Assembly (NCBI GenBank): GCA_022709865.1
Contig: JAKLIA010000002.1
Span: 14,521-78,520, forward strand
Length of the DNA: 64,000 bases
Origin: Patescibacteria group bacterium
GTDB lineage: Bacteria > Patescibacteriota > Minisyncoccia > Portnoybacterales > GWB1-42-6
Direction: 5' to 3'
Both the position numbers and the translations under genes were made by a program. The notes under the pieces were generated by a model, which worked only from the letters and a program-made list of their open reading frames with translations, made no database searches and was not told the origin of the DNA. Positions within the stretch are counted from its first letter, which is position 1, and each line of letters begins with the position of its first letter. Below are positions 9,767 to 64,000 of the stretch, piece by piece.

Positions 9767-10053
9767 TTGCGCAAGAGCGTGATTCCTTATGCACTTATTA
9801 TCCGCCTTAATACTTGACAAGCTTTTAGACACTTGGTATCACTAATATATTAGAAATCTAGACATGTTCAAGAAGGGTTGTTTAGGTTTTTTTATTTATA
9901 AAATTAATAATATAAAGTGAAGGCAATGAAGCTCAGTCTTTATGTGGACGCCTAGACCGAGTGGAGCCAACGGCGTAACCGCTCACTCAATAAAGACTGT
10001 TCTGGCGGGCTGATTCCACAATTTACTCGCGGAAACAGCACTTTATAAAAAAA

Positions 10054-27830: not shown

Positions 27831-27993
27831 ATTAGATAAGCTAATAATTAATAATTAAGATAATTTTTAAGGTTTTATGCGAAAATTCAAGTTAATGGTA
27901 GGAGACGATATAATGGACCTTCTTCCGTCTATCCTGACCGCATTTATCATAATTGCCGGATTTGTCACTTTAATAATAAAAAACTTATAGACC

Positions 27994-28188
27994 ATGTGCC
28001 TCACTATCCCCAAAAAAGTTATTTCAGCTGGAAAGGAGGCTATTGTTGTCAAAGCTGGGGAGAAAAAAGAAATAGTAGCCAGCCTCTTGCCGGTCAAAAA
28101 AGGGGATTGGGTCTTAACGCAGAGCCAAGTCATAATCAAAAAAATAACCGCTAAGCAGGCTAAAGAAATAAATAATCTCATTATTTAA
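27994..28188 (+). CDS. hypC: Hydrogenase maturation factor HypC/HupF family
   Basis: 64 aa beginning MCLTIP (the essential N-terminal Cys2 motif of HypC) and GDWVL near the C-terminus. Confidence 0.75.
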   Translation: MCLTIPKKVISAGKEAIVVKAGEKKEIVASLLPVKKGDWVLTQSQVIIKKITAKQAKEINNLII

Positions 28189-36927: not shown

Positions 36928-38014
36928 ACTGAAACTCTTTACTAAAAACATCTTATTACTAATAGCAACTTGTTTAGTTGTTTTTGCCGTTGCTGAATGC
37001 TTATCCAGGCTGTTTTTTAAGCCGCAAGAGCTTTTTAACGATGTTATTATAACGGCTCCTAAAAATACCGTGGTAAATAAAGATAATGGGCTTTCTTATA
37101 ATTTAACCACCAAGAAATTATTGACAGATAGATATACTCAATTTTTTTCTAATAATCCGCTTATAAAAAAAGAAAAACCGCCAGGAACATACAGAATAAT
37201 CACTCTTGGCGATTCGTATACTCGTGGGGCAGGCACTAAAAATATTTATGATGACAGCTATAGCATCCAATTGATGAAATTATTAAATAGCGGCCAAGAA
37301 ATAAAGGGTATTAGCAATTTTGAGATCCTGCCGATTTGCTATGATGGACTTAACACTTATCAGGAGCTTATTTTACTGCAAGAAATAGCGTTGGCCTATA
37401 ATCCGGATCTGGTCATTTTGCAATACACCGATAACGATGTTGAATACCCCCGCAATGAGATTGGGATAATGAAAAGTTCCGCGGAACATAAAAACGGAGA
37501 GTATTTTCAGTTTCAAAAGTTTTCAAGAATGAACTTTATTATCTATGACAATATATTTATCCCCGCACTGCCTCATTTTGATAACGAACTTGGCTGGCGA
37601 ATGCTAAAATATTCTAACTTTCTTCGCTTTGTCTCTTATAAATTAAATTATATTTTGCGGGAAGAAGAGGTTCCGGAAAATGATATAAACTCCAGCTTCA
37701 AATCTCTTGAAAAGATATCCGAGATAACAAAAGAAAAAAATATTCCCTTGATAATGTTCTATTTTCCGCCAGCGTCATGGACAGAAAATTATTGTGGCAC
37801 CAGGAACGCTGATTTTAGAAAAAGCCTAGCCGCCGAAGCTGCCAAGCTTCAAATTAAATATTTTTCAATGTGCGATTATGTGGCGGACATTAATTCGATC
37901 AGGGGCTTAACCGATGCTCCAAGCAACAACCATTATAATAAAGAAGGTTATGGTATTGCCGCCGAAGTCTTGAAGAACGGGGTTATTGATATTATTAATG
38001 TTGGTATTAAATAA
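36917..38014 (+). CDS. SGNH/GDSL-hydrolase-like protein with N-terminal TM anchor (paralog 1 of 3)
   Basis: N-terminal TM. GDS(L) block IITLGDSYTRGAG. C-terminal His block SNNHYNKEGY. Tandem with two paralogs. Confidence 0.6.
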   Translation: MKNKLKLFTKNILLLIATCLVVFAVAECLSRLFFKPQELFNDVIITAPKNTVVNKDNGLSYNLTTKKLLTDRYTQFFSNNPLIKKEKPPGTYRIITLGDSYTRGAGTKNIYDDSYSIQLMKLLNSGQEIKGISNFEILPICYDGLNTYQELILLQEIALAYNPDLVILQYTDNDVEYPRNEIGIMKSSAEHKNGEYFQFQKFSRMNFIIYDNIFIPALPHFDNELGWRMLKYSNFLRFVSYKLNYILREEEVPENDINSSFKSLEKISEITKEKNIPLIMFYFPPASWTENYCGTRNADFRKSLAAEAAKLQIKYFSMCDYVADINSIRGLTDAPSNNHYNKEGYGIAAEVLKNGVIDIINVGIK

Positions 38015-39103
38015 ATGGCAGGAAAATTAAAGCCGTTATTAAAAAACATACTGCTCTTATTGGCTGCTTGTGCGTTCTTTTTTTTATGCGCCGAGATAGC
38101 TTGCCGGCTGTTTTATGATGAAAAAGTTAATTATACTCCTTGGATATGGGAAAAGCTGCAAGAAGATGGCGCAAAAACTTTTTCCCTCACAGATCAAGAT
38201 ACTTATGTTAATAAAGATAATGGCTTATATTATTTGTTAGATAGCAATTCTTTAAATAAACAGAGATACGCCAGATTTAATTACCAAAAGACAGTAAAAA
38301 AAGAAAAAACAGCAGAAGAATACCGCGTTGCCATCATTGGCGATTCTTTTACCGGCTCTTCTGGTTTATCTCCCGATGAAAAAAACTATACAGCCATGCT
38401 ATCAGAGGCCTTAAATAATGCTGGCCAAAAAAGTTTTAATATCCTTCCTTTTTCCGAAGGGGGAATAAATACCTATCAAGAATTAACTATACTGAAAGAG
38501 TTCTTAGGAGATATAAAGCCCGATTTAGTTGTTCTCCAATATTGCGATAATGACGTTGAAGCGATAAAAACTCCCTATGGAGTAAACAACCATAATCTTT
38601 GGATCGATAGCCGAACAGATCCCATAATACTTGATAAACAAATCGTTCCCGCGCTGCCGTATTTGCCTAAAAGCCTAAGCAAGTTTTTATTGAGCAATTC
38701 GGCTTTCTGGCGTTTTTTTTCTTATAAATTAAATATCATTTCCACTTATTATGTCGACGCCACTGACACAAACTCAAGCCTCGAATCCTTAAAACAGATG
38801 AAACTGCTGCTGGCTAGCAAAGGAATCCCTCTGGTGGTTATCGATTTTCCGCCCGCGGTTAACGAACAAGATTATTGCGGCTATGTGTCTGGGGAGGGTG
38901 GGAAAAAACTTCAAGATGAGATCAGAAAGATGGCCGTAGAATTAAACTTTTCTTTCTTGAGCTTATGTGATTATGTTGATGATATCCATTCTTTGCAATC
39001 CAGCATAGAAAGCAACCATTATCACTATAATACGGAAGGCCATCGCCTTGCGGCCGAAGCGCTAAAAAAAGAGATATTAAACATAACAAAGAATGAAGAA
39101 TAG
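38015..39103 (+). CDS. SGNH/GDSL-hydrolase-like protein with N-terminal TM anchor (paralog 2 of 3)
   Basis: AIIGDSFTGSSG and SNHYHYNTEGH blocks. Same length and organisation as the flanking paralogs. Confidence 0.6.
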   Translation: MAGKLKPLLKNILLLLAACAFFFLCAEIACRLFYDEKVNYTPWIWEKLQEDGAKTFSLTDQDTYVNKDNGLYYLLDSNSLNKQRYARFNYQKTVKKEKTAEEYRVAIIGDSFTGSSGLSPDEKNYTAMLSEALNNAGQKSFNILPFSEGGINTYQELTILKEFLGDIKPDLVVLQYCDNDVEAIKTPYGVNNHNLWIDSRTDPIILDKQIVPALPYLPKSLSKFLLSNSAFWRFFSYKLNIISTYYVDATDTNSSLESLKQMKLLLASKGIPLVVIDFPPAVNEQDYCGYVSGEGGKKLQDEIRKMAVELNFSFLSLCDYVDDIHSLQSSIESNHYHYNTEGHRLAAEALKKEILNITKNEE

Positions 39104-40124
39104 ACTTCTAAAAAATATTATTTTAATTATTATTTCCCTTTTGATAACGCTGTTTTTTTTGGAAACTATTTTTAAGATTTGGGAGATCGATAAAAACATA
39201 AACGGCTCTGTGGTTTGGCCAGAGATAAACCGAATAAGCGGAGAAGGTTTGAATAATAGTTATATAAAAAAAGACAATGGCCTCTCCTACAAATTAGAAG
39301 ATGATAGCCTAAACGAAGATTTGTATATTCTTTTTGATAAGAGCCATTTTACCAAAACTAAACCGCCCGGAGTTTACCGAATAGCCATAGTCGGCGATTC
39401 TTATACCTGGATACCTAAAAATATCGATTGGATAAAGTTTTATGCCCCGCAATTAACAGAAATGCTGTCTAAAGAAAAAACGCTTTTCGAAGTTTTGCCG
39501 TTCGCCCAGCCCGGGCTAAACACCGAGCAGGAGTTCACTATCATCAAAGAGCTCGCTTTAAGTTATAATCCCAACCTAGTGATCCTCCAGAGCACAAACA
39601 ACGACAATGAATTGCCTAGAGCCTCCTTGCGTTTAGGCCCATCCACAGAATACGTAATTTCTAAAAGCGAAGTTATCGTCATTAACAACCGCGCTATTCC
39701 GGCTTTTTCTTTTTTGAGCCATAAAATAAACCTATTCATCCTTCAAAACTCGTCCTTCTTGCGCTATATCGCTTATAATTGGAACGTTATATTATATAAA
39801 TATCAGGCTCAGCCCTGGCAAAAAAATCTTGATACCATAAAAGAAATAAAAAAAATTACGGAAGAAAAAAATATTGATTTTTTAGTTATTTTTACTCCAT
39901 CAGCATTGAATAACCCCTGCGCCGAAGAAACCATTAAAAGCTTGGGCGAACAATTTAAGAGCCTGAGCGAAGAGATCAAAACCCCTATCCTTAATCTTTG
40001 TGATAATGTTCTGGATTTTAGCGCTTATAAGGCTAAGGAAGGGGACGGCCACTACAACACCGAAGGATATAAAATAGTAGCCGAAGCTTTAAAAAACGAG
40101 ATATTAAAAATAATAAAAAAATAA
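39093..40124 (+). CDS. SGNH/GDSL-hydrolase-like protein with N-terminal TM anchor (paralog 3 of 3)
   Basis: IAIVGDSYTW and DGHYNTEGY blocks. Confidence 0.6.
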   Translation: MKNRLLKNIILIIISLLITLFFLETIFKIWEIDKNINGSVVWPEINRISGEGLNNSYIKKDNGLSYKLEDDSLNEDLYILFDKSHFTKTKPPGVYRIAIVGDSYTWIPKNIDWIKFYAPQLTEMLSKEKTLFEVLPFAQPGLNTEQEFTIIKELALSYNPNLVILQSTNNDNELPRASLRLGPSTEYVISKSEVIVINNRAIPAFSFLSHKINLFILQNSSFLRYIAYNWNVILYKYQAQPWQKNLDTIKEIKKITEEKNIDFLVIFTPSALNNPCAEETIKSLGEQFKSLSEEIKTPILNLCDNVLDFSAYKAKEGDGHYNTEGYKIVAEALKNEILKIIKK

Positions 40125-40128
40125 ACAT

Positions 40129-40290
40129 ATGCCAGAAAATAAAAGTTTCCTGATAGAGCTTTGGGATTTTTTAAAGATCCGTAAAAAATGGTGGCTGTTG
40201 CCGATCATTATTATGTTAGCTCTGGTAGGCCTTCTGATCATTTTTGGCCAAGAAAGCGCACTTTCGCCTTTAATTTATACGATTTTTTAA
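40129..40290 (+). CDS. DUF5989-like micro-protein (53 aa) of the kind found next to carbamoyltransferases (SxtK-like)
   Basis: Below the ORF-track cutoff. Product MPENKSFLIELWDFLKIRKKWWLLPIIIMLALVGLLIIFGQESALSPLIYTIF has the L..LW.FLK.RKKWWLLPI...L.LGLL...G.S...PFIYTLF pattern I recall for DUF5989. Tightly packed between its neighbours (5-nt and 1-nt gaps). Confidence 0.55.
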   Translation: MPENKSFLIELWDFLKIRKKWWLLPIIIMLALVGLLIIFGQESALSPLIYTIF

Positions 40291-40291
40291 T

Positions 40292-42043
40292 ATGGCCGCA
40301 CTGAGCGGATACTTGAAAAATATTGCCCTGAACATAAAAAAAATAGCTCTGTTGCCGGCTAATTTTGTTTTGTTAACCGCTGTTTTAATAATTTTGACAG
40401 TTTTTTTTAATAAACAAATCCTGGCTGATTATCTAACAATAAGGCCTTTTTTTAGCTACTATTTTTTTGGGGCTATAATCCTTTTGATAGTCGCTATTAT
40501 AGTTTTGGCAACTATTAACTGGAAACGGTTAAAGTTAGTGCTAGTTCAAGACAAATATTTAATAGTTTTAATTATTATTTTATTGGCTATTTTAGTCGGA
40601 TTGATCATGGCTGGGCCGGTTCTGGTCAGGGTAGACAAAGAAACGTCCGCTGTCTTGGGGAGCCTGGACTTTGAATTAAACGCCTTATCATCTTTTTCGG
40701 TAATTTTTCGCGCTAAAGCATATTTTTTAATAATGCATTTTTTGGCATATATTATGCCCATAACGATAAAAAGCCTGTCTGTGATAAATGCTTTTTTGAT
40801 AGTTTTTCAGATGTTATTAGTGTATTTAATATTAAAATTGCTGCTGAATAATAATCGCCTAGCTTTTCTAGCCAGCCTTTTATTCATATTTTATCCCAAC
40901 AATTTATTGATCGGGCGGGCGCCAGACTATGCTTTTGCTGGGCAGATCTTCGGCACCTTTAGCTTGTTTACGCTGCTTCTTTTTGTAAAATACAAAGACC
41001 GGCTTTTGCTTTTTTGGAGCTTGGCTATTTTGAGCTTGTCTTTGTTTTTGAGAATAGAGATGATCTTTTGGCTGCCTTTCTATCTTTTTCTTTTATGGCG
41101 CAATTTAGATGATGAACAAATAAGGAAAATCAAGAACATTATTAATGTTTTTCTTTTGCTAAGCCTGCCCTTAATGCTGGCAACGATCATTTGTTTTTTT
41201 ATCAGCCCAACCGGTTCGATTTCTGATGTCAGCTTTTACAACTTAAGGCTGACTAGCGGCTGGAATCTTTTACAGCAAATAACAAATTACTATCATTTTG
41301 TTATAGACAGAAACTTAGCCTTTAATTTGAGCTATCTGATTTTTGCCATACCTCTTTTTTGGATTACGCCTTTGGCTTTAGTGTTTTTTCGCGATAAAAA
41401 GATATGGGATTACATATTATATTTTTTCTTTTTTTGGGCTATCATTACTGTTTTCCATTGTAACGAAAGAATCGATTCTTATGAGTTCCTTTCTTATTTA
41501 ATAGTTCCTCTGGTAATTTTGGCTGGTTTGGTTATAGGGCATCTTTCAAAAATCCATAAATACGGCTGGTTGGCTTCTGCCGCCTTAGTCCTGTTTCTTA
41601 TCATTTTTGGCTTTAAGCTCTATCAGCCAGCTTGGTTTTTCACTGATAACGTCACAATTTTTTGGAATAACGAATACCAGCTTATAGAAAAACATCTGGG
41701 CCAAATAAATAATGACTCAGTTATTATTACTAATGATAAAATAAGCTTGATCTCTTCGGTGGTAAACAAAAAAAACGAAAAGATCGTCCAGGCCTTGCCC
41801 GATATAACTAAACAGATCAAGGAGCTAAAAAACAAGTATAATAATGTTTTTGTTATACAAGGCTCGCTTAACGCTTCCCGGCCAAGCATATCGACTTTTG
41901 AAGCAAATCAATTTGAAAAAATAATAAAAGATAATTTTAATTTGGAAGTGGTCTATCGGGAAAGGCTCGGAGAAGACGGCTTAAACCAGCCCGGAATAGC
42001 ACCGATAAAAAACGCTTTAATTTTTCTATACAAGATTAACTAA
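40292..42043 (+). CDS. Large polytopic membrane protein (about 11 TM helices plus a 170-aa C-terminal soluble domain). Putative GT-C-fold glycosyltransferase or related glycan-modifying enzyme.
   Basis: 583 aa, dense hydrophobic helices through about residue 410, then a hydrophilic C-terminal domain. This architecture is shared with ArnT/PMT-type GT-C enzymes. No family-specific motif recognised. Confidence 0.55.
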   Translation: MAALSGYLKNIALNIKKIALLPANFVLLTAVLIILTVFFNKQILADYLTIRPFFSYYFFGAIILLIVAIIVLATINWKRLKLVLVQDKYLIVLIIILLAILVGLIMAGPVLVRVDKETSAVLGSLDFELNALSSFSVIFRAKAYFLIMHFLAYIMPITIKSLSVINAFLIVFQMLLVYLILKLLLNNNRLAFLASLLFIFYPNNLLIGRAPDYAFAGQIFGTFSLFTLLLFVKYKDRLLLFWSLAILSLSLFLRIEMIFWLPFYLFLLWRNLDDEQIRKIKNIINVFLLLSLPLMLATIICFFISPTGSISDVSFYNLRLTSGWNLLQQITNYYHFVIDRNLAFNLSYLIFAIPLFWITPLALVFFRDKKIWDYILYFFFFWAIITVFHCNERIDSYEFLSYLIVPLVILAGLVIGHLSKIHKYGWLASAALVLFLIIFGFKLYQPAWFFTDNVTIFWNNEYQLIEKHLGQINNDSVIITNDKISLISSVVNKKNEKIVQALPDITKQIKELKNKYNNVFVIQGSLNASRPSISTFEANQFEKIIKDNFNLEVVYRERLGEDGLNQPGIAPIKNALIFLYKIN

Positions 42044-43107: not shown

Positions 43108-43329
43108 CTATTTTTTATTGAATATTTGCTATCCCATCCCATTCGTTGAGGGGGCGAAGGGGGAGCGTAGCTCCCGCCTTGGCGGAAACATTAAAACCGA
43201 GGGGTTTTAAGGAGTGAGAAGAAAAACGACGAACGACAGAATGGTGGTTATGCTTGTAGATTGGCAGAGATGGGGGAACAGATAGCCAAATAATAGCTTT
43301 CTGAAAAACCGATGGAGGGACATAAGATT

Positions 43330-44958
43330 ATGAAGATCCTATTTATTTTTCCTTTTATAAACACTAAGGGAGGCGATCCTATTAAGTTTTTGCCAATTGG
43401 CCCAGCGGCTTTAATTGGAACTTTGAAGCCAGATTTTCCAGAAATTATATTTGAGCAAATAGAACTAGAAGAAGAAATAAGAGAAAAAAAGAGACAAGGA
43501 AAGATTGATAAAAAATACGAAAAATTATTAGAGAGCTTTAATCAGAATAAAGCTCTTTTTCCGTCTAGCAATGCTGTAAAAGAATATAAAGGGTTTTTTG
43601 ACAAATTAATTAATTTTTTTCAAATAGACCAATACGACCACTACTTTTTTTCTCGCTATGATGACGATTGCGGCCTAAGAGCTAATCTTTTTTTTGCCAA
43701 ATATTTAAAAAGCCTTTTTCCTGACAAAAAAATTATTTTTGGCGGAATTAATAACGCTAGAAGCAATGAAATCGACAATAGCCTTTTTAATAGTTTGAAC
43801 TTCATTGATTCTTTTATAGTTGGTCCGGGAGAAAAATCAATGAGGCTAATTTTGCAGAAGCTTTTAGATAGCGAAAAACTAGATACAAAATATTCTTTTT
43901 GGGTTTCGCCTCAAGAAAAAATTAAAAACCTTCCCGACTACAAAAGCAATCGGAGTTTATCCCTTTTTAAGCACTCGGTAAAAGAACTGGAAGGCAAAGA
44001 GGGTGGCTCAAAAAACTTAATATCAATACCGTATTATTTTTCAATTGGCTGTTTTTGGAGTCAATGCGCTTATTGCGCTAACTCGCACTTTAAGGGGTCT
44101 AGCCCCAGCCAAAAACAAGCGCATAAATCAATTGACCAGATAATCTCTGATTTGACCAGACTAAAGAAAGATTATAAAACAAAGCATTTTATTTTTTTTA
44201 ATCAAAACTTTAATTTTGACCTGGATTTCACTAAGCAACTATTAAAAAGGATCATAAGCGAGAAATTAGATATTTTATGGACGGATTATTTTAATTTAAC
44301 GATTTTTGACGAAGAGTTGCCCAGCCTTCTAACTCAGGCGGGGTGCTATCGAATAGATCTTGGAACTGTCACTTTTAATGATAAGCTTCAAAAGCTTTAT
44401 AGTAATTTATTTAAAAATCAACAGCTCAAATATTTAAAATATATCAGCGACGCCGGAATATGGATTAACTTAAACATCATCGCCAATCTCCCTTATTCTT
44501 ATTCAATAGAGGGAGAAAAGAAGGTATTGAAAAACTATTTAAAATATTTTGATTCGGCAGACATTAATTTTTATAGGAACTTTTCTATTTCTGATTTAGC
44601 CTTAAATTATCGCTTCTACGATTTAAAAACCGCTGATAAAAAAATAGTTTTTAAAGAAGGATTGACCGGCAATTTATCGTTTATCGAAAAAAATGGAGGC
44701 AAAAGCGTAGACGAAAAAGCGGTAATCTCGCAAAAAAACTACTTAGATTGGGAAAGATTTTTAATTAAAAACGGCAAGGTAATAAATAACCATAATTTTG
44801 CCTATTTATCGTATTTGTACGATGCCCATGGTTTTAATAATAAAGAAAGAATCAAAAAACTTTTCTGTTCTGCCAAGAATAATACCTGTCTGCTACCAAA
44901 AGAATCAAAAGATAAAGTAGGGCCAAAGGGACGGCTATCTTTAGTTAAAAAGCCCTAA
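43330..44958 (+). CDS. B12-binding-domain / radical-SAM-like protein with a non-canonical Cx4Cx2C cluster motif (hypothetical)
   Basis: N-terminal MKILFIFPF... (B12-binding-radical-SAM-like start). Putative cluster motif GCFWSQCAYC. Start set at ATG 43330; an alternative is the upstream in-frame ATG at 43312. Confidence 0.45.
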   Translation: MKILFIFPFINTKGGDPIKFLPIGPAALIGTLKPDFPEIIFEQIELEEEIREKKRQGKIDKKYEKLLESFNQNKALFPSSNAVKEYKGFFDKLINFFQIDQYDHYFFSRYDDDCGLRANLFFAKYLKSLFPDKKIIFGGINNARSNEIDNSLFNSLNFIDSFIVGPGEKSMRLILQKLLDSEKLDTKYSFWVSPQEKIKNLPDYKSNRSLSLFKHSVKELEGKEGGSKNLISIPYYFSIGCFWSQCAYCANSHFKGSSPSQKQAHKSIDQIISDLTRLKKDYKTKHFIFFNQNFNFDLDFTKQLLKRIISEKLDILWTDYFNLTIFDEELPSLLTQAGCYRIDLGTVTFNDKLQKLYSNLFKNQQLKYLKYISDAGIWINLNIIANLPYSYSIEGEKKVLKNYLKYFDSADINFYRNFSISDLALNYRFYDLKTADKKIVFKEGLTGNLSFIEKNGGKSVDEKAVISQKNYLDWERFLIKNGKVINNHNFAYLSYLYDAHGFNNKERIKKLFCSAKNNTCLLPKESKDKVGPKGRLSLVKKP

Positions 44959-45399: not shown

Positions 45400-46902
<1,503 letters not shown>

Positions 46903-47142: not shown

Positions 47143-47428
47143 GCCCCTCACTTGAAAAGGATATGTTTTATGTTTATGTCCTAAAAAGTGAAGTAGATGA
47201 TAAACTGTATATTGGCTATACAGATGATCTACGACGCAGAATTGAAGAACATAGCAAAGGAAAGTCAAAGGCAACAAATCCAAGGAAACCATTTAAGCTG
47301 GTTTATTACGAGGCCTACTTCTCCCGAAGCGATGCTAAATATAGGGAAAGTCAATTAAAAAGATTTTCTGGTTCATACACACATCTGAAAAGAAGAATTA
47401 AAAATTCAATCCTTTTCAAGTGAGGGGC
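47143..47428 (+). mobile_element. GIY-YIG ORF cassette bracketed by a perfect 20-bp inverted repeat, inserted at the 5' end of tRNA-Ile
   Basis: Left arm gcccctcacttgaaaaggat (47143-47162) and right arm atccttttcaagtgaggggc (47409-47428) are exact reverse complements. The 11-nt gggcgattagc is directly repeated at 47134-47144 and 47425-47435; the second copy is the start of tRNA-Ile. Confidence 0.5.
47163..47423 (+). CDS. Small GIY-YIG nuclease-family protein (86 aa)
   Basis: MFYVYVLKSEVDDKLYIGYTDDLRRRIEEH: the GIY-(10 aa)-YIG spacing and the conserved Arg and Glu of the GIY-YIG fold. The stop codon lies inside the right IR arm. Confidence 0.8.
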   Translation: MFYVYVLKSEVDDKLYIGYTDDLRRRIEEHSKGKSKATNPRKPFKLVYYEAYFSRSDAKYRESQLKRFSGSYTHLKRRIKNSILFK

Positions 47429-47498
47429 GATTAGCTCAGGTGGTTAGAGCGCGTCACTGATAATGACGAGGTCCGAGGTTCAACTCCTCGATCGCCCA
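47425..47498 (+). tRNA. tRNA-Ile (anticodon GAT)
   Basis: GGGCGAT acceptor, D-arm AGCTCAGGTGGTTAGAGC, anticodon loop CTGATAA, T-arm GGTTCAACTCC, 3' ATCGCCC plus discriminator A. CCA not encoded. Confidence 0.9.
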
Positions 47499-47565: not shown

Positions 47566-47638
47566 GGGCCGATAGCTCAGTTGGTAGAGCACCTCGTTTG
47601 CAACGAGGGGGTCTGGAGTTCGAATCTCCATCGGTCCA
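47566..47638 (+). tRNA. tRNA-Ala (anticodon TGC)
   Basis: Acceptor GGGCCGA/TCGGTCC with the G3:U70 Ala identity pair. Anticodon loop TTTGCAA. T-arm GGAGTTCGAATCTCC. Confidence 0.9.
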
Positions 47639-55377: not shown

Positions 55378-55758
55378 TCATTTTACCATCAATTTTTCTG
55401 CCAGCCTTTTTTCAACGGCCGCCTGTTTTTCTTGGTATCGATATATTATTATCGAAGCCCCGATCCAAAGAGCAAGCGCTAGCACCACAGACCAAAACCA
55501 ACCCCAAAAATTAGAAAAGTCGCGGAAGAAAGTAATTCGAAATATTATGCTGGCAACACCGGCAACAATAACAATATCCAGCAACGCAACGCCAAACGCA
55601 ATCAAAAACTCCTTTTTGCTTAATTTTCCCATCTCGCTAAAAAAGTCCGATGAGTTCTGTTTTCTAGCCCAGCCTTTGATTTTTTCCCGGCATTGGCTTA
55701 AAAACAATTCCTTCCTGCCATCTCTTATACACCGACTCTTTGCCCTTAAAATTGACAT
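55378..55758 (-). CDS. Hypothetical small membrane protein (start set at the internal Met with GGAGG RBS)
   Basis: Minus-strand ORF. GGAGGT lies 5 nt upstream of the ATG at 55758 (reverse complement of acacCTCCaaaag). Two hydrophobic helices. The longer ORF-track version would run into the gltX promoter region. Confidence 0.5.
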   Translation of the reverse strand: MSILRAKSRCIRDGRKELFLSQCREKIKGWARKQNSSDFFSEMGKLSKKEFLIAFGVALLDIVIVAGVASIIFRITFFRDFSNFWGWFWSVVLALALWIGASIIIYRYQEKQAAVEKRLAEKLMVK

Positions 55759-55843
55759 AAACACCTCCAAAAGAAAATGTTTGTTATTTGTTGAAAAGAA
55801 CAAAAAAGACCCTTTAAACGTATATAAATAGTATAAACAATTT

Positions 55844-57316
55844 ATGAACAAAAGTCAAGTCCGAACCCGTTTTGCCCCCAGCCCCACCGGTTATCTCCAT
55901 ATCGGCTCTTTGCGCACCGCGCTCTATTCTTATTTATTTGCCAAACAGCATAACGGCAAGTTTATTTTGCGTTTGGAAGACACGGACCAAAAGCGTTTTG
56001 TTGAAGGCGCCACCGACGCTATTTATAGCGGCTTGAAATGGGCGGGTGTTAATCACGATGAAGGCCCGGATATTGGCGGGCCGTTCGTGCCGTATATCCA
56101 ATCGCAGCGTTTGGACTTATATAAAAAATACGCGCAAGAATTAATTGATAAAGACAAAGCCTATTATTGTTTTTGCGATGCTAAAACCTTGGAAGAAATG
56201 CGCAACGAACAGGTCGCCAGAAAACAGGCACCTAAATACGACCGGCGCTGCCTAAAGCTATCTAAAGAAGAAATCGCGCAAAAATTAGCCGCCGAAGAGC
56301 CGTATGTTATCCGAATGAAAATACCAGAGAATAGGACTATTGAAATAAACGATCTAGTGCGCGGCAAAGTGGCGTATAGGTCCGAAGAGCTGGACGACCA
56401 AGTCCTATTAAAATCCGACGGCTACCCAACGTATCACTTAGCAGTGGTGGTGGATGACCACTTAATGCAAATAACCCACGTCACCCGCACGGAAGAATGG
56501 TTGCCCTCAACCCCAAAGCATATTTTGCTTTATGAGTATTTTGGCTGGGAGGCGCCGCTTTTTGCGCATTTGCCGCTGCTGTTAAATGCCGACAAAACTA
56601 AAATGTCCAAACGCAAAGGAGACGTGGCGGTGGGAGATTATATTAAAAAAGGCTATCTGCCCGAAGCCATGGTCAACTATCTGGCGTTTTTGGGTTGGAA
56701 TCCCGGCTTGTCCTCCGAAGCCTCGGCGAAGGGGGAGCGAGAAAAAGAAACCTATTCCATGGAAGAATTATTAAAAGACTTCTCCTTGGAGCGGGTGCAT
56801 AAAGCCGGTGCAGTTTTTAACATTGAAAAATTAAATTGGTATAATAATTATTATTTAAAACAAAAAAGCGCCCAGGACCTAAGCGCCTTTGTTTGGCAGG
56901 GAGAAGAAAAGCCCAAAGCCCCAGAACCTCAAATCACCAAAGCCACGGCGATAGAATGCGAACGCAGCAATAACGCAGAGGAAATCAGAGAAAAGGTTAA
57001 TTTGCTTTTTAATCCGCCCGCTTTTGATAAATCCTTGCTTAATTGGAAAGCCATGGAAGAAAAAGATATAAAAGAATCTTTGGAATCATCGCAAAAAATA
57101 ATTGCCGGCATTCCAGAAAAAGATTTTAATTCTGAAAACCTAAAAAACATCTTAATGGAAGAAGCGGCCAAAAGAGGGGATAAGGGTTCTCTGCTTTGGC
57201 CCTTGCGCGTTTCGCTCTCGGGCCTAAAAAACTCTCCGCCGCCGTTTGATATTGCCGAAATTATTGGAAAAGAAAAAAGTTTAGCTAGAATAGCCCAGGC
57301 GATTAAATTGCTTTAA
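55844..57316 (+). CDS. gltX: Glutamate--tRNA ligase
   Basis: Class I HIGH motif (PTGYLHIGSLRTA), KMSKS motif (KMSKRKG). Typical GluRS catalytic-domain blocks. Confidence 0.9.
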   Translation: MNKSQVRTRFAPSPTGYLHIGSLRTALYSYLFAKQHNGKFILRLEDTDQKRFVEGATDAIYSGLKWAGVNHDEGPDIGGPFVPYIQSQRLDLYKKYAQELIDKDKAYYCFCDAKTLEEMRNEQVARKQAPKYDRRCLKLSKEEIAQKLAAEEPYVIRMKIPENRTIEINDLVRGKVAYRSEELDDQVLLKSDGYPTYHLAVVVDDHLMQITHVTRTEEWLPSTPKHILLYEYFGWEAPLFAHLPLLLNADKTKMSKRKGDVAVGDYIKKGYLPEAMVNYLAFLGWNPGLSSEASAKGEREKETYSMEELLKDFSLERVHKAGAVFNIEKLNWYNNYYLKQKSAQDLSAFVWQGEEKPKAPEPQITKATAIECERSNNAEEIREKVNLLFNPPAFDKSLLNWKAMEEKDIKESLESSQKIIAGIPEKDFNSENLKNILMEEAAKRGDKGSLLWPLRVSLSGLKNSPPPFDIAEIIGKEKSLARIAQAIKLL

Positions 57317-59316: not shown

Positions 59317-59346
59317 TTGACCCCAAAACCCTATTTGCAGTATTAT
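59317..59346 (+). promoter_or_regulatory. Sigma70-like promoter driving the Cys-rich micro-ORF
   Basis: TTGACC at 59317-59322, 18-nt spacer, TATTAT at 59341-59346. Confidence 0.4.
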
Positions 59347-59376: not shown

Positions 59377-59520
59377 ATGGCCGATAGAAAATGCCAATGC
59401 GGCATGCCGTTGGACGAAACTACCGAATGCTCCTGCCAGCCAGGTGTTTGCTGCTATTGCTGCACCTGCCAACCGGATTGCGAATGCGGCTGCCAGCAAA
59501 AAAAGGCGGAGCAAAAATAA
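59377..59520 (+). CDS. Cysteine-rich micro-protein (47 aa, 12 Cys), metallothionein-like
   Basis: MADRKCQCGMPLDETTECSCQPGVCCYCCTCQPDCECGCQQKKAEQK, rich in CxC and CC motifs. Has its own promoter and a downstream hairpin terminator (about 59588-59615). Weak RBS. Confidence 0.4.
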   Translation: MADRKCQCGMPLDETTECSCQPGVCCYCCTCQPDCECGCQQKKAEQK

Positions 59521-59655
59521 CTTGATTTTATTATGTTAACCAAATCCCACAACCAAATAGGGAAGTGGGCGATTGATGCTTATCCCCCAAGCGCATTTTA
59601 AAGTGCGCTTTTTATTAACCTTAAATAAAAAATTAGCTAATAGCCAATAAAAAGT

Positions 59656-61389
59656 ATGCCAGACACATTTACATTTGATGCCGAAGACAAAAAAATAGAA
59701 GATATTTTATTTTCTAGTAATAAATTTAGAATACCCCGATATCAGCGCCCTTATTCGTGGGATACAGATAAGGTAGAAGAGTTTTGGAATGACATTCAAA
59801 CAAATAAAGAAACTTTTTTTCTTGGTTCATTTGTTTTTAATTTCGAAAATTTTAAAGAAAACCAATACATAGAAATTATTGATGGCCAACAACGCCTCTT
59901 AACAATTACTCTTTTTATGGCCAGCATTAGAGATCTCGCAAAAAAAATGGGAGAGAATGATCTGGCTAAAAGAATTCAAACTAGCTGTATTGCCTTTGAG
60001 GATCGCAGAGGCAATCAAGAATATAGGATAGAATGCGGAGATTCAATTAAGGATTTTTTTAAAAACTATATCCAAAATCTTGATGCAGTCAATTTTCCAG
60101 GAAAAACCACAAAAGAGCAAAAATTAATAATAGATAATTATAATTTTTTTAAAAAAAGATTAGAGGACGAAATAAACAGTATAACTGAAAAGACAGAAAA
60201 AAAGGATTTTTTATTAAATCTTTGGGATAAAATTGCTGATCTTCGTGTTATCTGGATAGAAATTAATAGTGATGAGGAAGCATACACTATTTTTGAAACC
60301 GTTAACGCTCGAGGAGCAGAATTGACAGTGGCTGACCTCTTAAAAAATATGATTTTTAAAAACGTAAGAAAGAAAGACGGAGGGATAGATATCGCTAAAC
60401 AAAAATGGACAAAACTAGAAGAATCCATTTCAGAAACAGATATAGAAATATCTAAATTTATTCGCCACTATTGGCTATCAAAATATTCCTTTGTTGGAGA
60501 AAAAAATCTATATAAAGAAATAAAAAAACATATCGGAGATTTTGAAAAGTTTTTAAACGAACTAGTAGAAGCGTCATGTTGGTATAATAAATTAATTGCC
60601 GGCAACAATGATGACTGGCAAGAGATTAAAAACGGCAAAAAAATCTATGATACGCTTTTAGGCATCAAAGCTATGGGAGCAAAACAATGTCAAGTTCTAT
60701 TTTTAAGCCTTTTAAGAAATGTAAGTAAAGTTAATTTCAGCATCGCATATTATTTCCAAATTATAGAAAATTTTACATTTAATTATTCGGCTGTTTGTAA
60801 ATTACAAGCCAACAGAATAGAAAAGCTATATTCAAAAACAGCTATTGAGATAGAAAAGCAAATTTCAAATTCTAATAAAAAATTGGCTCAAAAAAACACA
60901 CAAAGAGCATTAGATTTACTAGTTAGAGAGTTAAAAGACCTACTGCCACCATATTCTCTTTTTGAAGAAAAATTTAAAGAAATCTCTTATAAAAATTCTG
61001 GAGTGTCTAGAATTTTTATAAAATACTTACTTTCAAAAATCAACAAAGAGAAAAGCGGAGGAGAGATAAAATTAGATTTCGATATCGTTAATATAGAGCA
61101 TGTTTTACCACATAAACCAAGTGATAAATGGAAAATTAAAAAATCAGAAATAAGAGACTATGTTGATTTACTTGGAAACCTAACCCTTGTTGATAAAAAG
61201 ATAAACTCTGAAGCGGGGAATAGATCCCCAAGAGAAAAAAGTAAAATATTAAAAAAATCTAAAATAGAGATAACGAAAGAAATTGCAAAACTTTTAAAAG
61301 ACCAAGATTATAGATGGAATCAAGAAGATATACTAAAAAGACAAAAACAATTATCTAAAACTTCCTATGCAAAAATCTGGAAGTTATAA
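59656..61389 (+). CDS. GmrSD-family type IV (modification-dependent) restriction endonuclease-like protein: DUF262 (ParB-like NTPase) plus DUF1524 (His-Me finger) domains
   Basis: N-terminal DUF262 motifs (RYQRPYSW, IIDGQQRLLTITLF, FETVNARG). C-terminal DUF1524/HNH-like motifs (NIEHVLPHKP, GNLTLVDKKINSEAGNRS). Very AT-rich, Lys-rich composition relative to its neighbours. Confidence 0.8.
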   Translation: MPDTFTFDAEDKKIEDILFSSNKFRIPRYQRPYSWDTDKVEEFWNDIQTNKETFFLGSFVFNFENFKENQYIEIIDGQQRLLTITLFMASIRDLAKKMGENDLAKRIQTSCIAFEDRRGNQEYRIECGDSIKDFFKNYIQNLDAVNFPGKTTKEQKLIIDNYNFFKKRLEDEINSITEKTEKKDFLLNLWDKIADLRVIWIEINSDEEAYTIFETVNARGAELTVADLLKNMIFKNVRKKDGGIDIAKQKWTKLEESISETDIEISKFIRHYWLSKYSFVGEKNLYKEIKKHIGDFEKFLNELVEASCWYNKLIAGNNDDWQEIKNGKKIYDTLLGIKAMGAKQCQVLFLSLLRNVSKVNFSIAYYFQIIENFTFNYSAVCKLQANRIEKLYSKTAIEIEKQISNSNKKLAQKNTQRALDLLVRELKDLLPPYSLFEEKFKEISYKNSGVSRIFIKYLLSKINKEKSGGEIKLDFDIVNIEHVLPHKPSDKWKIKKSEIRDYVDLLGNLTLVDKKINSEAGNRSPREKSKILKKSKIEITKEIAKLLKDQDYRWNQEDILKRQKQLSKTSYAKIWKL

Positions 61390-61453
61390 AATAATAATAG
61401 TATTGTGCGACATAATAAGTGTAATCAACCTAAATTAACTTAAATCAACCAAT

Positions 61454-61885
61454 ATGCCTCAAATAGCGCTTATAGCCATAGTTTTACCCTTACTTTTAGC
61501 CCCATTAGGCTCTGTTTTGGCCCAGGACGCGGCTTCAAGCACCGAGGCGGTAAATCCTGCGTTTGAGCTGCCAAAAACGCCTTTAGACGATGTTATAAAT
61601 AAGTGGTTCGGGGACGGCAAACTGCAGGAGGCAGCCCAAGATGCCATGAATAAGGCTCAATCAGGGCTGCAGAACGCTGCCGGGCAGGCTGTTGATACTG
61701 CCAAAGACGCTGCTCAAGCCGAAATTGAACGCCAGGCTGATTTGGCTATCCAAGGCGCCAGAGAAAAAGCCGAGGGATATGTAGGCGGGGTGGTATCTAT
61801 AGTTAAGAATGTAATAAATGATTTCATTTCTAAAATAAAATCTTTTTTCTCTGATCTGTTTGCTAAAGAAGCATCAACGTACTAA
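61454..61885 (+). CDS. Small secreted Ala/Gln-rich hypothetical protein
   Basis: Signal peptide MPQIALIAIVLPLLLAPLGSVLA. A hairpin terminator (GAGGGCT...AGCCCTC) follows at about 61905-61930. Confidence 0.45.
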   Translation: MPQIALIAIVLPLLLAPLGSVLAQDAASSTEAVNPAFELPKTPLDDVINKWFGDGKLQEAAQDAMNKAQSGLQNAAGQAVDTAKDAAQAEIERQADLAIQGAREKAEGYVGGVVSIVKNVINDFISKIKSFFSDLFAKEASTY

Positions 61886-62189
61886 AAAATAAAAAGACAG
61901 AAGTGGGTGAGGGCTTACGAAACAAGCCCTCTCTTATTAGGCTTATTCAGTCGCAAAAGGTATCTTGTGCGACATACTGTATAGCTCGCCTTGACACTTC
62001 CCTCTAAGTTATCCACAGCTAGTTTTTGTCCTTGCCTCCAAACCTTACTAGGCTATCTTTTAAATATTTATTACAAAAATATTTTTATATAAATAATTAT
62101 TTTATTTATTTTTCTTTTTTTATTTTTTGTAAATAAAAAGGGGCAGTCTTTTTTGACTTGCCCCTATCCCCTAAGGTTGGCCCTACCCC

Positions 62190-62495
62190 TTATTGAAGCG
62201 TTAGCTTATTAAGGTTAAGAAAGGGGTTAGATATTTTAACATGCCAACCCGTCGGCCTGACAATATAACTTTGCTGCGGCCTGATATTTGTCCATTTGCC
62301 ATTCTCATCAACCCATTTTACTTTTTTTGAAACGCCGCTAACCAATTCATACCCCAGAGATCTTATAGAAACCCTTTCTCCGCAAGTGGGGCATAACAAG
62401 TCGCCCTTCAGCATAAGCATCACCTCTGTTGAAAGCAGCACGCCGCAATACTCGCAAATGCCAAGATTATTAACTCCGACTATTATATCGGCCAT
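62190..62495 (-). CDS. Zinc-ribbon hypothetical protein (CxxC...CxxC)
   Basis: 101 aa, CEYCG...CPTCG. Imperfect hairpin plus T-tract downstream on the minus strand (about 62130-62165). Confidence 0.45.
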   Translation of the reverse strand: MADIIVGVNNLGICEYCGVLLSTEVMLMLKGDLLCPTCGERVSIRSLGYELVSGVSKKVKWVDENGKWTNIRPQQSYIVRPTGWHVKISNPFLNLNKLTLQ

Positions 62496-62609
62496 ATTAT
62501 GACCTCCTTTTAAGAACTATTTTAATATAACCATTATACAACAATAATTGCTCTTAGTCAATATTTTAGGCAAAATAAAACCTAGCTGATTGCAGCTAGG
62601 TTTTTATGG

Positions 62610-62999
62610 TTAATGGAGGGTTATGGCTTGGCCTAATGATTTTATTTTGGCTTCCTGGGTTTTAGCAATTTGTTCGTCCAGGATTTTTATAAAATCTTCA
62701 GGCTGCACAAACTCTCCCTGCTCAACTATATCTTCTAATCGCTCCTTCACTGTTAAATAAAGAAGGAAGGCGTTTTGGAACAGGCGGTCTTTTGCTTCCT
62801 CCAAAGCTTCATCAAGGGTTCCGCCAAACTCCCCTTCTTCTGTTTCTTGAATAAATAATTGGTCGCTGAAGCACTGAGCGATAATTTCTTTGTTCTCTTC
62901 TTTTTCTTCCTCCGAAAGAATGTTTAAGATCTGGTCAAAATTAATTAACGCTTGCTTATCTGATATGGAAACCGCGAAAAGTACAGAACGCATAAACAT
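62610..62999 (-). CDS. Highly acidic hypothetical protein (129 aa). Start set at the internal Met with a GAGGAGG RBS.
   Basis: GAGGAGGG 8 nt upstream of the ATG at 62999. Glu/Asp-rich. The longer ORF-track form would overlap the upstream gene by 89 nt. Confidence 0.45.
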   Translation of the reverse strand: MFMRSVLFAVSISDKQALINFDQILNILSEEEKEENKEIIAQCFSDQLFIQETEEGEFGGTLDEALEEAKDRLFQNAFLLYLTVKERLEDIVEQGEFVQPEDFIKILDEQIAKTQEAKIKSLGQAITLH

Positions 63000-63027
63000 A
63001 CGCAATCCCTCCTCTTGGTTCGTTTGG

Positions 63028-63351
63028 TTAAGCGTGGCCGACTTTATTCCAGTCGAATTGTTCGTGCCAGGTATCCCCGATAGAAATTGAGAAAGTGGCT
63101 CCCGGACGAAAAGCATTTCCCTTTTCTTTATTTATACAAGAATATAGTTCGAGTAGCTTAGAATTAAGGGAAACTATGACTTCTTTTTTTTCTTCCTCGG
63201 AAAAATATAGCTTATGCTTGTTTTTTTGGATCACTTCAGCGTATACTACCATATCATTTATCTCTTGAATTAAATAACAATGTTTTCTTTTTTCTTTCTC
63301 GGTCAACGACGACAAATACTGCTCAACATCAATTTCAAAAACAGTCTTCAT
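63028..63351 (-). CDS. Hypothetical protein (107 aa), first gene of a three-gene minus-strand block
   Basis: ORF with no recognisable motif. Divergent from the PD-(D/E)XK nuclease gene. Confidence 0.4.
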   Translation of the reverse strand: MKTVFEIDVEQYLSSLTEKEKRKHCYLIQEINDMVVYAEVIQKNKHKLYFSEEEKKEVIVSLNSKLLELYSCINKEKGNAFRPGATFSISIGDTWHEQFDWNKVGHA

Positions 63352-63481
63352 ATTTCCCCCTTTCTGTTCAATTGTTAAACAACAAAGGTGTAATTATCTT
63401 CTTCTATTTTTAGAATACGCCCAATTTAATTTAGGGTCAATCTTTCGTTTTATTGCCTAGAATGTTAAAATTGCCCTATAT

Positions 63482-64000
63482 ATGAGAATCTCTTATTCGG
63501 CGCTGGAAACCTTTAAGCGCTGCCCATTAAAGTTTAAGTTCCAATATATTGACCGCCTTAAAACGCGAAAATCCAAAGACGCGCTTTTTGGCACGTTGTT
63601 GCATAGCGCTTTAAAACTCCTGCATGAACCGGGGCTTATAATTCCCACCGAGGAAGATATTTTAAAGTTTGTCAGCGATAAGTGGGACTCTACCCCCTAC
63701 TCCACCGAGCAGGAATCTGCGCTGGCTTTTGGCCAGGCAATAAAAATCGTTAAAGATTATTACGCCAAAAATTATCCGGCTGATTTTGACGTGCTGGCGC
63801 TGGAAACTCCTTTTGAAGTGCCACTGCAAATCGGAAGTGAGCAGCATTTGATTACCGGTAAAATTGACCGGGTGGATAAGCTGGCCGACGGAGCGCTGGA
63901 AATCATCGATTATAAAACCACTAAAAAAATGCCTTCGCAGGAAAGCGTGGATAAAGATTTGCAGCTGGCAATTTATCACTTGGGAGTGGCTAATCGCTGG
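63482..64000 (+). CDS. PD-(D/E)XK nuclease-superfamily protein (RecB/Cas4-like nuclease domain). 3'-partial; it runs off the window.
   Basis: N-terminal SYSALETFKRCPLKFKFQYI (typical of RecB-family nuclease domains) and GKIDRVDK...LEIIDYKTT (D...D/ExK catalytic core). No stop before nt 64000. Confidence 0.7.
   Translation, partial: MRISYSALETFKRCPLKFKFQYIDRLKTRKSKDALFGTLLHSALKLLHEPGLIIPTEEDILKFVSDKWDSTPYSTEQESALAFGQAIKIVKDYYAKNYPADFDVLALETPFEVPLQIGSEQHLITGKIDRVDKLADGALEIIDYKTTKKMPSQESVDKDLQLAIYHLGVANRW

Follow-up and report, generated by a model that had tools for sequence, protein, structure and literature searches.

The DNA considered here is a 64-kb stretch of host chromosome (hereafter, the window) from a member of Candidatus Portnoybacteria, within the Candidate Phyla Radiation (CPR), and the part of it that we analysed is the 4.3-kb stretch at positions 59656-64000. 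In this stretch a gene for a GmrSD-type type IV restriction endonuclease is followed by a gene for a 143-aa signal-peptide protein, by a 28-bp palindrome that we consider a candidate chromosomal dif (Xer) site, by three small genes on the minus strand and by a divergent gene for a PD-(D/E)XK nuclease. CPR bacteria (Patescibacteria) have tiny genomes and their phage defence is poorly known. An initial annotation had described the restriction gene, the three small genes and the nuclease gene as an AT-rich defence island, and all these five genes are present where it had placed them.

The window was extended with L001, a 20-kb locus from a metagenome contig of the Joint Genome Institute (3300010429, Ga0116241_10000301), which is 100% identical to the window over an overlap of 11.8 kb and is reversed with respect to it (window position = 72496 - L001 position); altogether 72 kb of this genome are covered. 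Related loci are likewise denoted by L numbers. For the scans concerning GmrSD, synteny and nuclease loci we considered 80 syntenic loci, i.e. the best 80 of at least 163 species, with one genome for each species. The palindrome was counted in 99 related loci, and the skew test was run on 49 species loci having at least 3 kb on each side. The features on which the argument leans are the following.

59656 to 61389, plus strand: single-chain GmrSD-type (DUF262 + DUF1524) type IV restriction endonuclease of 577 aa, assigned by Pfam, PADLOC and motifs.
61454 to 61885, plus strand: sp143, the 143-aa signal-peptide protein, a backbone gene with a guanine-cytosine (GC) content of 0.465, overlooked by the initial annotation.
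61948 to 61975, plus strand: 28-bp palindrome organised as 11-6-11, CAGTCGCAAAA-GGTATC-TTGTGCGACAT, the candidate dif site.
62110 to 63302, minus strand: variable slot with the three small genes, delimited by blastn of L001 against L096/L098 (unmatched L001 positions 9194-10386).
62190 to 62495, minus strand: t101, a 101-aa zinc-ribbon protein (C14, C17, C35, C38) whose C-terminal part reads KKVKWV..G.W..P.
62610 to 62999, minus strand: t129, an acidic 129-aa protein with an isoelectric point (pI) of 4.28 and a net charge of -16.
63028 to 63351, minus strand: t107, a 107-aa protein with a predicted fold of one strand, a helical hairpin and a beta-hairpin.
63482 to 64000, plus strand: first 173 codons, within the window, of a 385-aa Fe-S PD-(D/E)XK nuclease of the Cas4/AddB type (full gene at L001 7857-9014).

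We consider it likely that the parts of this stretch form a mosaic, located at the chromosomal replication terminus, and not one functional defence island.

The first gene was assigned on both of its domains. The N-terminal part of its product matched the Pfam family GmrSD_N (PF03235, residues 15-234, E=8e-38) and the C-terminal part matched GmrSD_C (PF07510, residues 436-568, E=2.3e-23), and the best PADLOC match was HEC-06 (PDLC04157, E=2.6e-112), in which residues 14-576 were aligned to positions 14-556 of a profile of 558 and which PADLOC treats as a single-gene candidate defence system. The protein contains IIDGQQRLLT (residues 74-83), IEHVLPH (residues 480-486, with H replacing Q) and LGNLTLVDKKIN; the family motifs according to Machnicka et al. 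are (I/V)(I/V)DGQQR, (I/L/V)(E/D)H(I/L/V)xPQ and L(G/A)NLxLLxxxN (PMC4619093). The gene is thus a further member of a known enzyme family. Its solved relatives were only the DUF262 protein 9jfl (E=6e-13) and SspE.

The gene was said to be richer in AT and lysine than the housekeeping genes around it, and this holds. GC content is 0.291 and GC content at third codon positions 0.223, against 0.44-0.46 and 0.47-0.50 in FtsW, MurG, GltX and M23, and lysine makes up 13.3% of its residues, against 4.7-10% in the same four. In fact, no other 1.7-kb stretch of the window has so low a GC content (window mean 0.414, standard deviation 0.034). The AT-rich island shrinks to this one gene, as GC content is 0.352 for t107, 0.392 for t129, 0.425 for t101 and 0.453, the backbone level, for the nuclease. 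A tblastn search for GmrSD gave no match in any of the 80 syntenic loci of related species, its 90%-identity cluster has one member, and identity to the best relatives from plasmids and phages is about 27-32%. The edges of the insertion could be mapped on the loci L100 and L096, as follows.

59378 to 59521, plus strand: cysteine-rich microprotein open reading frame (ORF) of 47 aa with 13 cysteines (MADRKCQCGMPLDETTECSCQPGVCCYCCTCQPDCECGCQQKKAEQK), a backbone gene at the left edge of the insertion.
59522 to 61402, plus strand: inserted segment of at most 1.88 kb with GmrSD as sole gene, from blastn against L100 and L096.

Homology to L100 and L096 ends at 59520 and restarts at 61402/61403, and in L100 the two flanks are about 190 bp apart. 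The matched stretch on the left lies within the microprotein gene (window 59398-59520 = L001 12976-13098 = L100 2125-2247), whose homologue in L100 is 49 aa long (2125-2274) and which is itself flanked by a promoter-like site at 59317-59346 and a terminator at 59589-59610. Given the boundaries at 59520 and 61403, the inserted segment bears one gene, and since this gene has the lowest GC content and is missing from all the syntenic relatives, we considered it a single-gene horizontal insertion. On sequence grounds, then, GmrSD is a stand-alone type IV restriction gene acquired horizontally, as the initial annotation had suggested from its composition. Foreign in composition, it would have entered alone between the microprotein gene and sp143. 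By homology, its ParB-like DUF262 domain (DGQQR) would hydrolyse nucleoside triphosphates and its His-Me-finger DUF1524 domain would cut DNA with modified bases, e.g. phage DNA carrying hydroxymethylcytosine (hmC) or glucosyl-hmC; the enzyme would in this way restrict modified phage DNA and would not need a methyltransferase partner.

As regards the microprotein, the 47-aa ORF is metallothionein-like, and no exact match to its sequence was found in the protein collection searched. Unrelated cysteine-rich small ORFs precede the relatives of t101 in L091, L092 and L093.

The palindrome region was found by aligning the flanks of sp143 from nine genomes. Its core, GTCG(C/T)AAAA-N6-TTGTGCGAC, lies at 61950-61973, and two more bases on each side give the 28-mer. 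We found it exactly once, and with no mismatch, in 38 loci, and once in 69 of the 99 loci when at most three arm mismatches were allowed (e.g. L003 9132-9155, L012 9925-9948, L044 410-433); these 69 include loci of Moranbacteria in which identity of the nuclease is down to about 45%. The arms hardly vary (0-3 substitutions), and the 6 bp at the centre are variable. In some loci the variant is GTCGCATAA-N6-TTATGCGAC, which is near the canonical dif core. The palindrome is also present as a single copy in the whole window, where 0.10 copies were expected by chance. In the loci anchored on the nuclease it always lies upstream of this gene and in the same orientation, L030 being the exception. Five of the six possible pairs between positions 7-12 and 17-22 are complementary; for comparison, the dif criterion of Kono et al. 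asks for at least four (PMC3025954).

The palindrome coincides with a switch in both skew and gene orientation. GC skew is higher on the left of the palindrome than on its right in all of the 49 species loci (mean +0.111 versus -0.070, Wilcoxon p=1e-9), and ORFs of at least 150 aa amount to 212 kb on the plus strand and 6.9 kb on the minus strand on the left, against 64 kb and 117 kb, respectively, on the right. Within the first 62 kb of the window all ORFs of at least 100 aa are on the plus strand, except for two doubtful short ones on the minus strand (27867-28181 and 55378-55851), and the cumulative G-C curve reaches a plateau at 48-64 kb and then drops. Because the skew changes from plus to minus and the genes converge, we read the position as the replication terminus, and because this terminus signature falls at a conserved palindrome with one copy per locus, we read the palindrome as the chromosomal dif site. 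Precisely, it is probably, judging from its sequence and position, the dif/Xer site of Portnoybacteria, Moranbacteria and related Parcubacteria, at which Xer recombinases would resolve chromosome dimers.

Some points weigh against this assignment. It rests on 72 kb of this genome plus syntenic loci, and as these loci are all syntenic, the 49 skew comparisons are not fully independent; moreover, GC skew is confounded with the coding strand. For the ORFs at window positions 1-53 kb, 25 of the 63 matching Pfam families were listed, with no Xer or Phage_integrase family among them, and none of the genes called around the locus is annotated by Pfam as Xer. A Phage_integrase-type gene adjoins the nuclease in some relatives (L009, L013-L021). 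Our literature search found no description of dif in CPR bacteria.

Other elements lie around the palindrome.

61403 to 61425, plus strand: half-site TTGTGCGACATAATAAG with a -10-like TGTAAT, just upstream of sp143 and identical to the right dif-like arm.
61909 to 61931, plus strand: terminator-like hairpin after sp143.
61990 to 62140, no strand assigned: conserved non-coding block, CTTGACA..CCC..AAGTTATCCACAG, CCAAACCTTAnTAG, then a 95-bp tract of 9.5% GC.

The orthologues of sp143 are 89.5% identical in L096, 54% in L003 and 40% in L006, and no family match was obtained for it in Pfam, PADLOC or curated-model searches. The non-coding block on the other side of the palindrome is conserved across the alignment of nine relatives and includes a perfect DnaA-box-like TTATCCACA at 62009-62017. 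Together with the 95-bp tract this could recall an origin of replication, a reading that was ruled out by the plus-to-minus skew change and the convergence of genes; 9-mers like TTATCCACA are also barely enriched in the window (21 observed, 14 expected). No Rfam match was found for the block at E<=1, and its hairpin has a single G-U change, with no compensatory pairs, so for this conserved DNA the dif reading is better supported than a structured RNA. A small ORF on the minus strand was rejected too, as 1-nt insertions or deletions between the conserved blocks break the frame.

On the left of sp143, at a distance of about 550 bp from the full site, the half-site, TTGTGCGAC(A/G)TAA, is kept in L003, L006, L010, L011, L012, L096 and L100. 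In the window it gives an exact 12-mer repeat at 61403 and 61965. We treated this repeat as a lead and not as proof of site-specific insertion, since by our estimate about two such pairs within 600 bp would arise by chance per 64 kb and the left copy may belong to a promoter. The half-site could be a hybrid site of the Xer type, or a part of the promoter or operator of sp143.

Cargo genes of differing kinds end 12-70 bp left of the half-site: GmrSD in the window, a pVip-like gene in L012 and an ORF6N gene in L096-L098. The gene in L012 (8560-9423) encodes a radical S-adenosylmethionine protein matching prokaryotic viperins (PADLOC pVip, E=6.8e-35), and the ORF6N gene is split and frameshifted (L096 9257-9691, L098 4156-4804; PADLOC PDC-S05, E=8e-24). 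In L005 a type II restriction-enzyme-like gene (11-901, REase_II, E=1e-42) lies directly upstream of the nuclease. These occurrences support the view that the terminus-proximal region is a variable hot spot collecting defence genes, and such a hot spot is compatible with Xer-dependent capture as by integrative mobile elements exploiting Xer recombination (IMEX; PMC5357621). The labels SspA and DndA, which PADLOC assigned to genes in the slots of some relatives, were not counted as defence, for these are IscS-type cysteine desulfurases beside IscR and NifU. In distant lineages the interval between M23 and the nuclease measures 0.6-6 kb and holds housekeeping genes (IscR-IscS-NifU, an Xer-like recombinase, GNAT). 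As a separate observation, the loci of the Moranbacteria type (L026 7651-9723, L036, L038) carry an IscR-IscS-NifU operon for Fe-S assembly between the dif-like site and the nuclease.

The same facts could be explained if the small-gene slot, and perhaps the GmrSD segment, were cargo or remnants of elements that integrate at dif with the aid of Xer, as IMEX elements and the dif-flanked (pdif) modules of Acinetobacter do. Both are well documented (PMC5357621, PMC7399989), the dif-like site has a variable slot on either side, and different cargo ends at a short distance from a half-site identical to the right dif arm. However, neither the left edge of GmrSD nor the edges of the small-gene slot showed a second hybrid site, and this slot begins about 135 bp from dif and not at dif. 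If the half-site belongs to the promoter of sp143, any upstream insertion would seem to abut it; furthermore, there are no homologues in phages or viral contigs and no replication or transfer genes. We consider this explanation unlikely and retain the mosaic.

The slot on the right of the palindrome holds two transcription units. The relevant signals are the following.

62604 to 62577, minus strand: intrinsic terminator with a 12-bp stem, the best terminator match of the region, which ends the bicistron of the 107-aa and 129-aa genes.
62135 to 62175, minus strand: hairpin GGGGCAAGTC-AAAAAA-GACTGCCCC followed by TTTTTATTT, the likely terminator of t101, kept in the relatives whatever the cargo.

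The best promoter match of the region, a sigma-70-like TTGACT-17-TATAAT with 11 of 12 matching positions at 62561-62533 on the minus strand, serves t101. As the best terminator and the best promoter both fall between t129 and t101, the trio divides, on these predicted signals, into a t107-t129 bicistron, in which t129 begins 28 bp downstream of t107, and a separate unit for t101. The small genes had been presented as one co-directional block; they do share the minus strand, but they do not share a transcript. Strong Shine-Dalgarno sites precede all three (AGGAGGT for t101), including the strong ribosome-binding site already claimed for the acidic gene, AGGAGGG 7 nt before the ATG at 62999. We set the start of t129 there, and the mechanical ORF extends to 63116 (168 aa).

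Each of the three genes belongs to a small family, rather than being the non-conserved singleton that had been allowed for. When 5.8 billion proteins were searched by word index, each of the three matched only itself, and an exhaustive search of 1.84 billion representatives gave, for t107, four homologues of 101-110 aa with 36-41% identity, to which a truncated copy in L003 is added. For t129 the sole homologue is a 114-aa protein, 50% identical, in the same slot of L100. As for t101, a metagenome scan gave 11 relatives, in a family of 13 members, in which the four cysteines are invariant except for a spacing variant in L086/L091 and KK(V/I)KW(V/I)..G.W...P is conserved. None of the three proteins rose above noise in Pfam, NCBIfam, PADLOC or PHROGs. 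Precisely, in PADLOC-DB 2.0 t107 and t101 had no match and the 168-aa ORF containing t129 had only DpdG (E=0.026, 12 bits), so that no trio protein has a significant match to a defence-system model. As far as these searches go, the three are tiny CPR-restricted families.

The AlphaFold2 (AF2) model of t107 has a mean predicted confidence (pLDDT) of 76.5 and its fold matches only generic helical hairpins; the single-sequence model of t101 (pLDDT 38.8) was unusable, a point that weakens what we say about its role. Comparison of t107 with t129 by hhalign gave E=9e-4 with a probability of 23%, and the two are possibly distant paralogues. Assignment of t107 to mCpol (PF18182) was discarded: the Pfam match has E=0.12 only, conservation is lacking at the candidate for the catalytic turn, the fold matches are of a generic kind, and a palm-domain fold with conserved metal-binding Asp and a GGDD/GGDEF-like hairpin was not found. 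A phage or prophage origin of the trio was discarded as well, since no relatives were found in IMG/VR (pattern scans), INPHARED (tblastn) or PHROGs.

The content of the slot changes even between close relatives. The closest relative found, L096-L098, has about 89% nucleotide identity in the backbone and a PyrG that is 97.6% identical. Its homology with our DNA stops at 63302, about 17 codons into t107, and restarts at 62110, past the terminator hairpin of t101; between these points, where the 1.2-kb slot of the window holds the trio, it has a single gene for a 101-aa homologue of t107 which is 37% identical. The slots compared are these.

Window: 107 + 129 + 101.
L100: 107 + 129.
L096-99 and L003: 107 only.
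L004, L084 and L089: 101.
L083, L087 and L088: 101 + another small family.
L094: 107 + an unrelated 109-aa protein + 101 (59% identical).
L006, L008, L010 and L012: none.

The DNA between dif and the nuclease may be pictured as an expression slot, with a conserved terminator on the dif side and, on the nuclease side, a conserved promoter together with the first 17 or so codons of t107. Its contents would be fast-turning-over accessory proteins drawn from a few CPR-restricted families, namely the helical pair t107 and t129, encoded on a single transcript, and a zinc-ribbon protein transcribed independently, and they would be exchanged by homologous recombination through the conserved flanks. 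Integron cassettes and att repeats were considered and rejected, as we found only low-complexity repeats and nothing attC-like, t101 has its own promoter, and there is no integrase in the locus.

The tight t107-t129 bicistron, with its own terminator and a strongly acidic second product, could also be a toxin-antitoxin or effector-immunity pair in which the acidic protein is the neutraliser, t101 being an unrelated small nucleic-acid-binding protein. The pairing recurs in L100, and rapid divergence is typical of such pairs. Yet t107 occurs with no t129 in L096-99, L003 and L095, and with the unrelated 109-aa partner in L094; paralogy between the two proteins, if real, would be unusual for toxin-antitoxin pairs; and no toxin or antitoxin family was matched by either of them, the predicted fold of t107 being a plain helical hairpin with a small sheet. 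A pair of this kind strikes us as very improbable, and we keep to the accessory proteins of an exchangeable slot.

Further variable DNA was noted near these genes. Past the window end, a third variable slot (L001 5837-7823) separates the nuclease from the conserved s145 gene. Four small basic ORFs (97, 98, 114 and 78 aa), most of them membrane-anchored, occupy it; relatives were found for the 97-aa one only, and the closest genome has a different gene set there. In L095 inverted repeat copies at 72-281 (plus strand) and 1502-1765 (minus strand), which translate as ...FWRELKRPIESRATK..., flank a t107 homologue and a transmembrane/zinc-ribbon gene on a short contig, and they may be an element similar to a miniature inverted-repeat transposable element.

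The divergent gene that runs off the window had been recognised as a RecB/Cas4-like PD-(D/E)XK nuclease, and correctly, since the window part alone matches PDDEXK_1 with E=7.6e-30. On the full protein the match covers residues 2-246 (profile 1-247 of 247, E=3e-38), and the C-terminus is a lysine-rich tail of about 135 aa with a weak DUF7376 match. The putative catalytic residues are D129, D143-Y-K145 and Q161xxxY, and the cysteines C14, C236, C239 and C245 (C-X221-C-X2-C-X5-C) are placed as in the Fe-S clusters of Cas4 and AddB. Among solved sequences, the nearest are those of the AdnAB nuclease domains from mycobacteria (phmmer, residues 3-247, E about 1e-7).

We did not classify the protein as AddB/RecB, as it scores 29.3 bits with TIGR02786 (addB), where the cutoff is 486.5, and has 385 aa with the nuclease domain at the N-terminus; in addition, none of the genes called in the 20-kb locus received a Pfam annotation of a helicase family, hence no AddA/UvrD-type partner was found. 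Nor did we classify it as Cas4, for which it scores 29.2 bits with TIGR00372 against a cutoff of 65, the PD-(D/E)XK core and the four Fe-S cysteines being present nonetheless. Among the called genes of the 20-kb locus there are no cas genes, and no array resembling clustered regularly interspaced short palindromic repeats (CRISPR) was found there. The initial annotation had allowed that the ORF might be the N-terminus of a housekeeping AddB/RecB-type enzyme; literally it is not, because it is complete, and yet it is a core gene of housekeeping type.

In fact, homologues were found in at least 163 species. In the best 80 of these they cover residues 1 to about 379 with 41-83% identity, in Portnoybacteria, Moranbacteria and other Parcubacteria, and the backbone order is FtsW-MurG-GltX-M23 ... 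nuclease-s145-L27-PyrG-L9-CtpB, with M23 upstream in 42 loci and L27, PyrG and s145 downstream in 52-66 loci. Because of this breadth, of the conserved synteny and of its backbone GC content, the nuclease is, on comparative evidence, a vertically inherited core gene. It would be a RecB-family Fe-S enzyme acting in general processing of DNA ends or in repair, outside any mobile or defence cassette.

This distribution bears on the proposal that the trio and the divergent nuclease, possibly together with GmrSD, are the parts of a new multi-gene system of anti-phage defence or of anti-defence. In its favour, the locus is variable, and recognised defence genes lie within 1-2 kb of the same position in relatives; an acidic protein and a zinc ribbon are plausible as parts of an inhibitor or a sensor; and divergence is much more rapid in the small proteins than in the backbone (37% versus 87-98% identity). 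Against it, the nuclease is kept in all those species with fixed synteny, mostly with no trio beside it. Searches by tblastn and jackhmmer detected homologues of a trio gene in no more than two of the 80 nuclease loci (L003 and L004), and the slots of L006, L008, L010 and L012 have none. The converse also occurs: outside the clade the zinc-ribbon family adjoins L11/NusG/SecE, ribonucleotide reductase or NusA/H+-PPase, with no nuclease within 6 kb, and the t107 homologue of L095 is away from any nuclease. The trio is two transcription units with no match in PADLOC, PHROGs or phages. GmrSD and the trio, which had been described as immediately adjacent, are separated by sp143, a backbone gene, and by about 300 bp of conserved non-coding DNA with the dif-like site. 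The co-occurrence test that had been proposed, when run on other genomes, showed the trio genes with the nuclease only within one syntenic locus, and since all cases are of this kind, co-occurrence is indistinguishable from shared ancestry. The module proposed by the initial annotation is thus not borne out, and its view of a defence-gene neighbourhood is kept in part, i.e. for GmrSD, which is a defence gene, and for the other defence genes that relatives carry nearby, but not for the trio, which has no defence signature.

We consider such a system quite improbable, and its parts are probably as follows: a GmrSD gene acquired horizontally, three small genes that can be swapped, and a repair-type nuclease inherited vertically, arranged around the candidate dif site. 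GmrSD, the nuclease and the small genes most likely act independently. Two observations speak the other way. In the Portnoybacteria clade, wherever the flank is long enough, homologues of t107 lie directly upstream of the nuclease and divergent from it (window, L003, L096-L099 and L100), an adjacency that could reflect function rather than shared ancestry; and extreme divergence of small proteins beside a slot that collects defence genes is a pattern like that of conflict genes. A broader version would regard the dif-flanking DNA as a conflict locus anchored on Xer and dif, made of a slot for classical defence and a cassette of small proteins, with t107/t129 and t101 as new defence, anti-defence or Xer-modulating factors that possibly work with the nuclease; we hold this, too, to be doubtful, and prefer independent parts around a terminus.

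Elsewhere in the window we noted some features that do not touch these genes. A c-di-GMP-II riboswitch (64 bits) at 9910-9993 on the plus strand lies directly upstream of a giant gene of 2602 aa (10054-17862, plus strand). A 16S rRNA gene at 45400-46902 is followed by tRNA genes at 47425-47498 and 47566-47638; as no 23S or 5S gene was detected in the 64 kb together with the 16S gene, the rRNA genes appear unlinked. A second low-GC region (0.32-0.38), at 36917-42043 and 43312-44958 beside a carbamoyltransferase gene, comprises three consecutive ORFs of about 345-365 aa that are alike at the N-terminus and two larger membrane proteins, and it may be an island for surface-glycan modification; the Pfam summary of the window has two GDSL-lipase-like members, which may be among its ORFs. 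In window positions 1-53056 one ORF matches PADLOC mad3 (E=8.9e-33), and there are weaker single matches to AriA, mad8 and a CARF fusion.

If our reading is right, one CPR lineage maintains type IV restriction in single-gene form, within a compact variable region next to a probable dif site, and its relatives hold different defence genes at the same place. A practical rule would be that accessory and defence genes in fragmentary CPR assemblies are to be sought beside the 28-bp palindrome and the conserved nuclease. The analysis also yields a candidate dif sequence for a group that is large and uncultured, together with three families of small proteins with unusually fast turnover. There is also a warning: adjacency alone is no basis for calling a system, as the nuclease is a core gene that merely borders the hot spot.

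With respect to known systems, we compared each part with its nearest counterpart. The GmrSD gene resembles its family (Eco94GmrSD, BrxU, HEC-06) in the N-terminal DUF262 domain with DGQQR, the helical linker of about 200 aa and the C-terminal DUF1524 His-Me finger, in the motifs (I/L/V)(E/D)H..P and LGNLxL...N borne by a single polypeptide, and in being a stand-alone gene of foreign composition in a variable region. A fourth motif of the family (W....I..R...L......IW) shows a one-residue shift. Unlike the known members, it has only the distant plasmid and phage relatives given above, and its host is an ultra-small CPR bacterium. The nuclease shares the PD-(D/E)XK core and the set of four Fe-S cysteines with Cas4 and with the C-terminal domains of AddB and AdnA/AdnB. 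In AddB and AdnA/AdnB, however, the nuclease domain is C-terminal, and AddB/RecB subunits are large (about 1000 aa or more) with a helicase-like N-terminal region, whereas here it belongs to a stand-alone protein of 385 aa with no helicase domain and with a C-terminal extension of about 135 aa. The t101 protein has two CxxC knuckles 17 residues apart, like the small zinc-ribbon proteins (Zn_ribbon_3/DZR/TFIIB-type), but its matches to the Pfam ribbons are all below threshold (E 0.02-0.3) and its conserved C-terminal half has no known counterpart. The palindrome, finally, is like dif in its length of 28 bp, its two 11-bp arms forming an imperfect inverted repeat around a 6-bp centre, its position at the switch of skew and orientation and its single occurrence in each of the 69 loci that have it. 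The candidate shares with E. coli dif only 17 of 28 positions, and the inner arm bases CAAAA/TTGTG (CATAA/TTATG in some relatives) are like those of canonical dif; variable DNA adjoins it, as it does the dif sites exploited by IMEX (PMC5357621).

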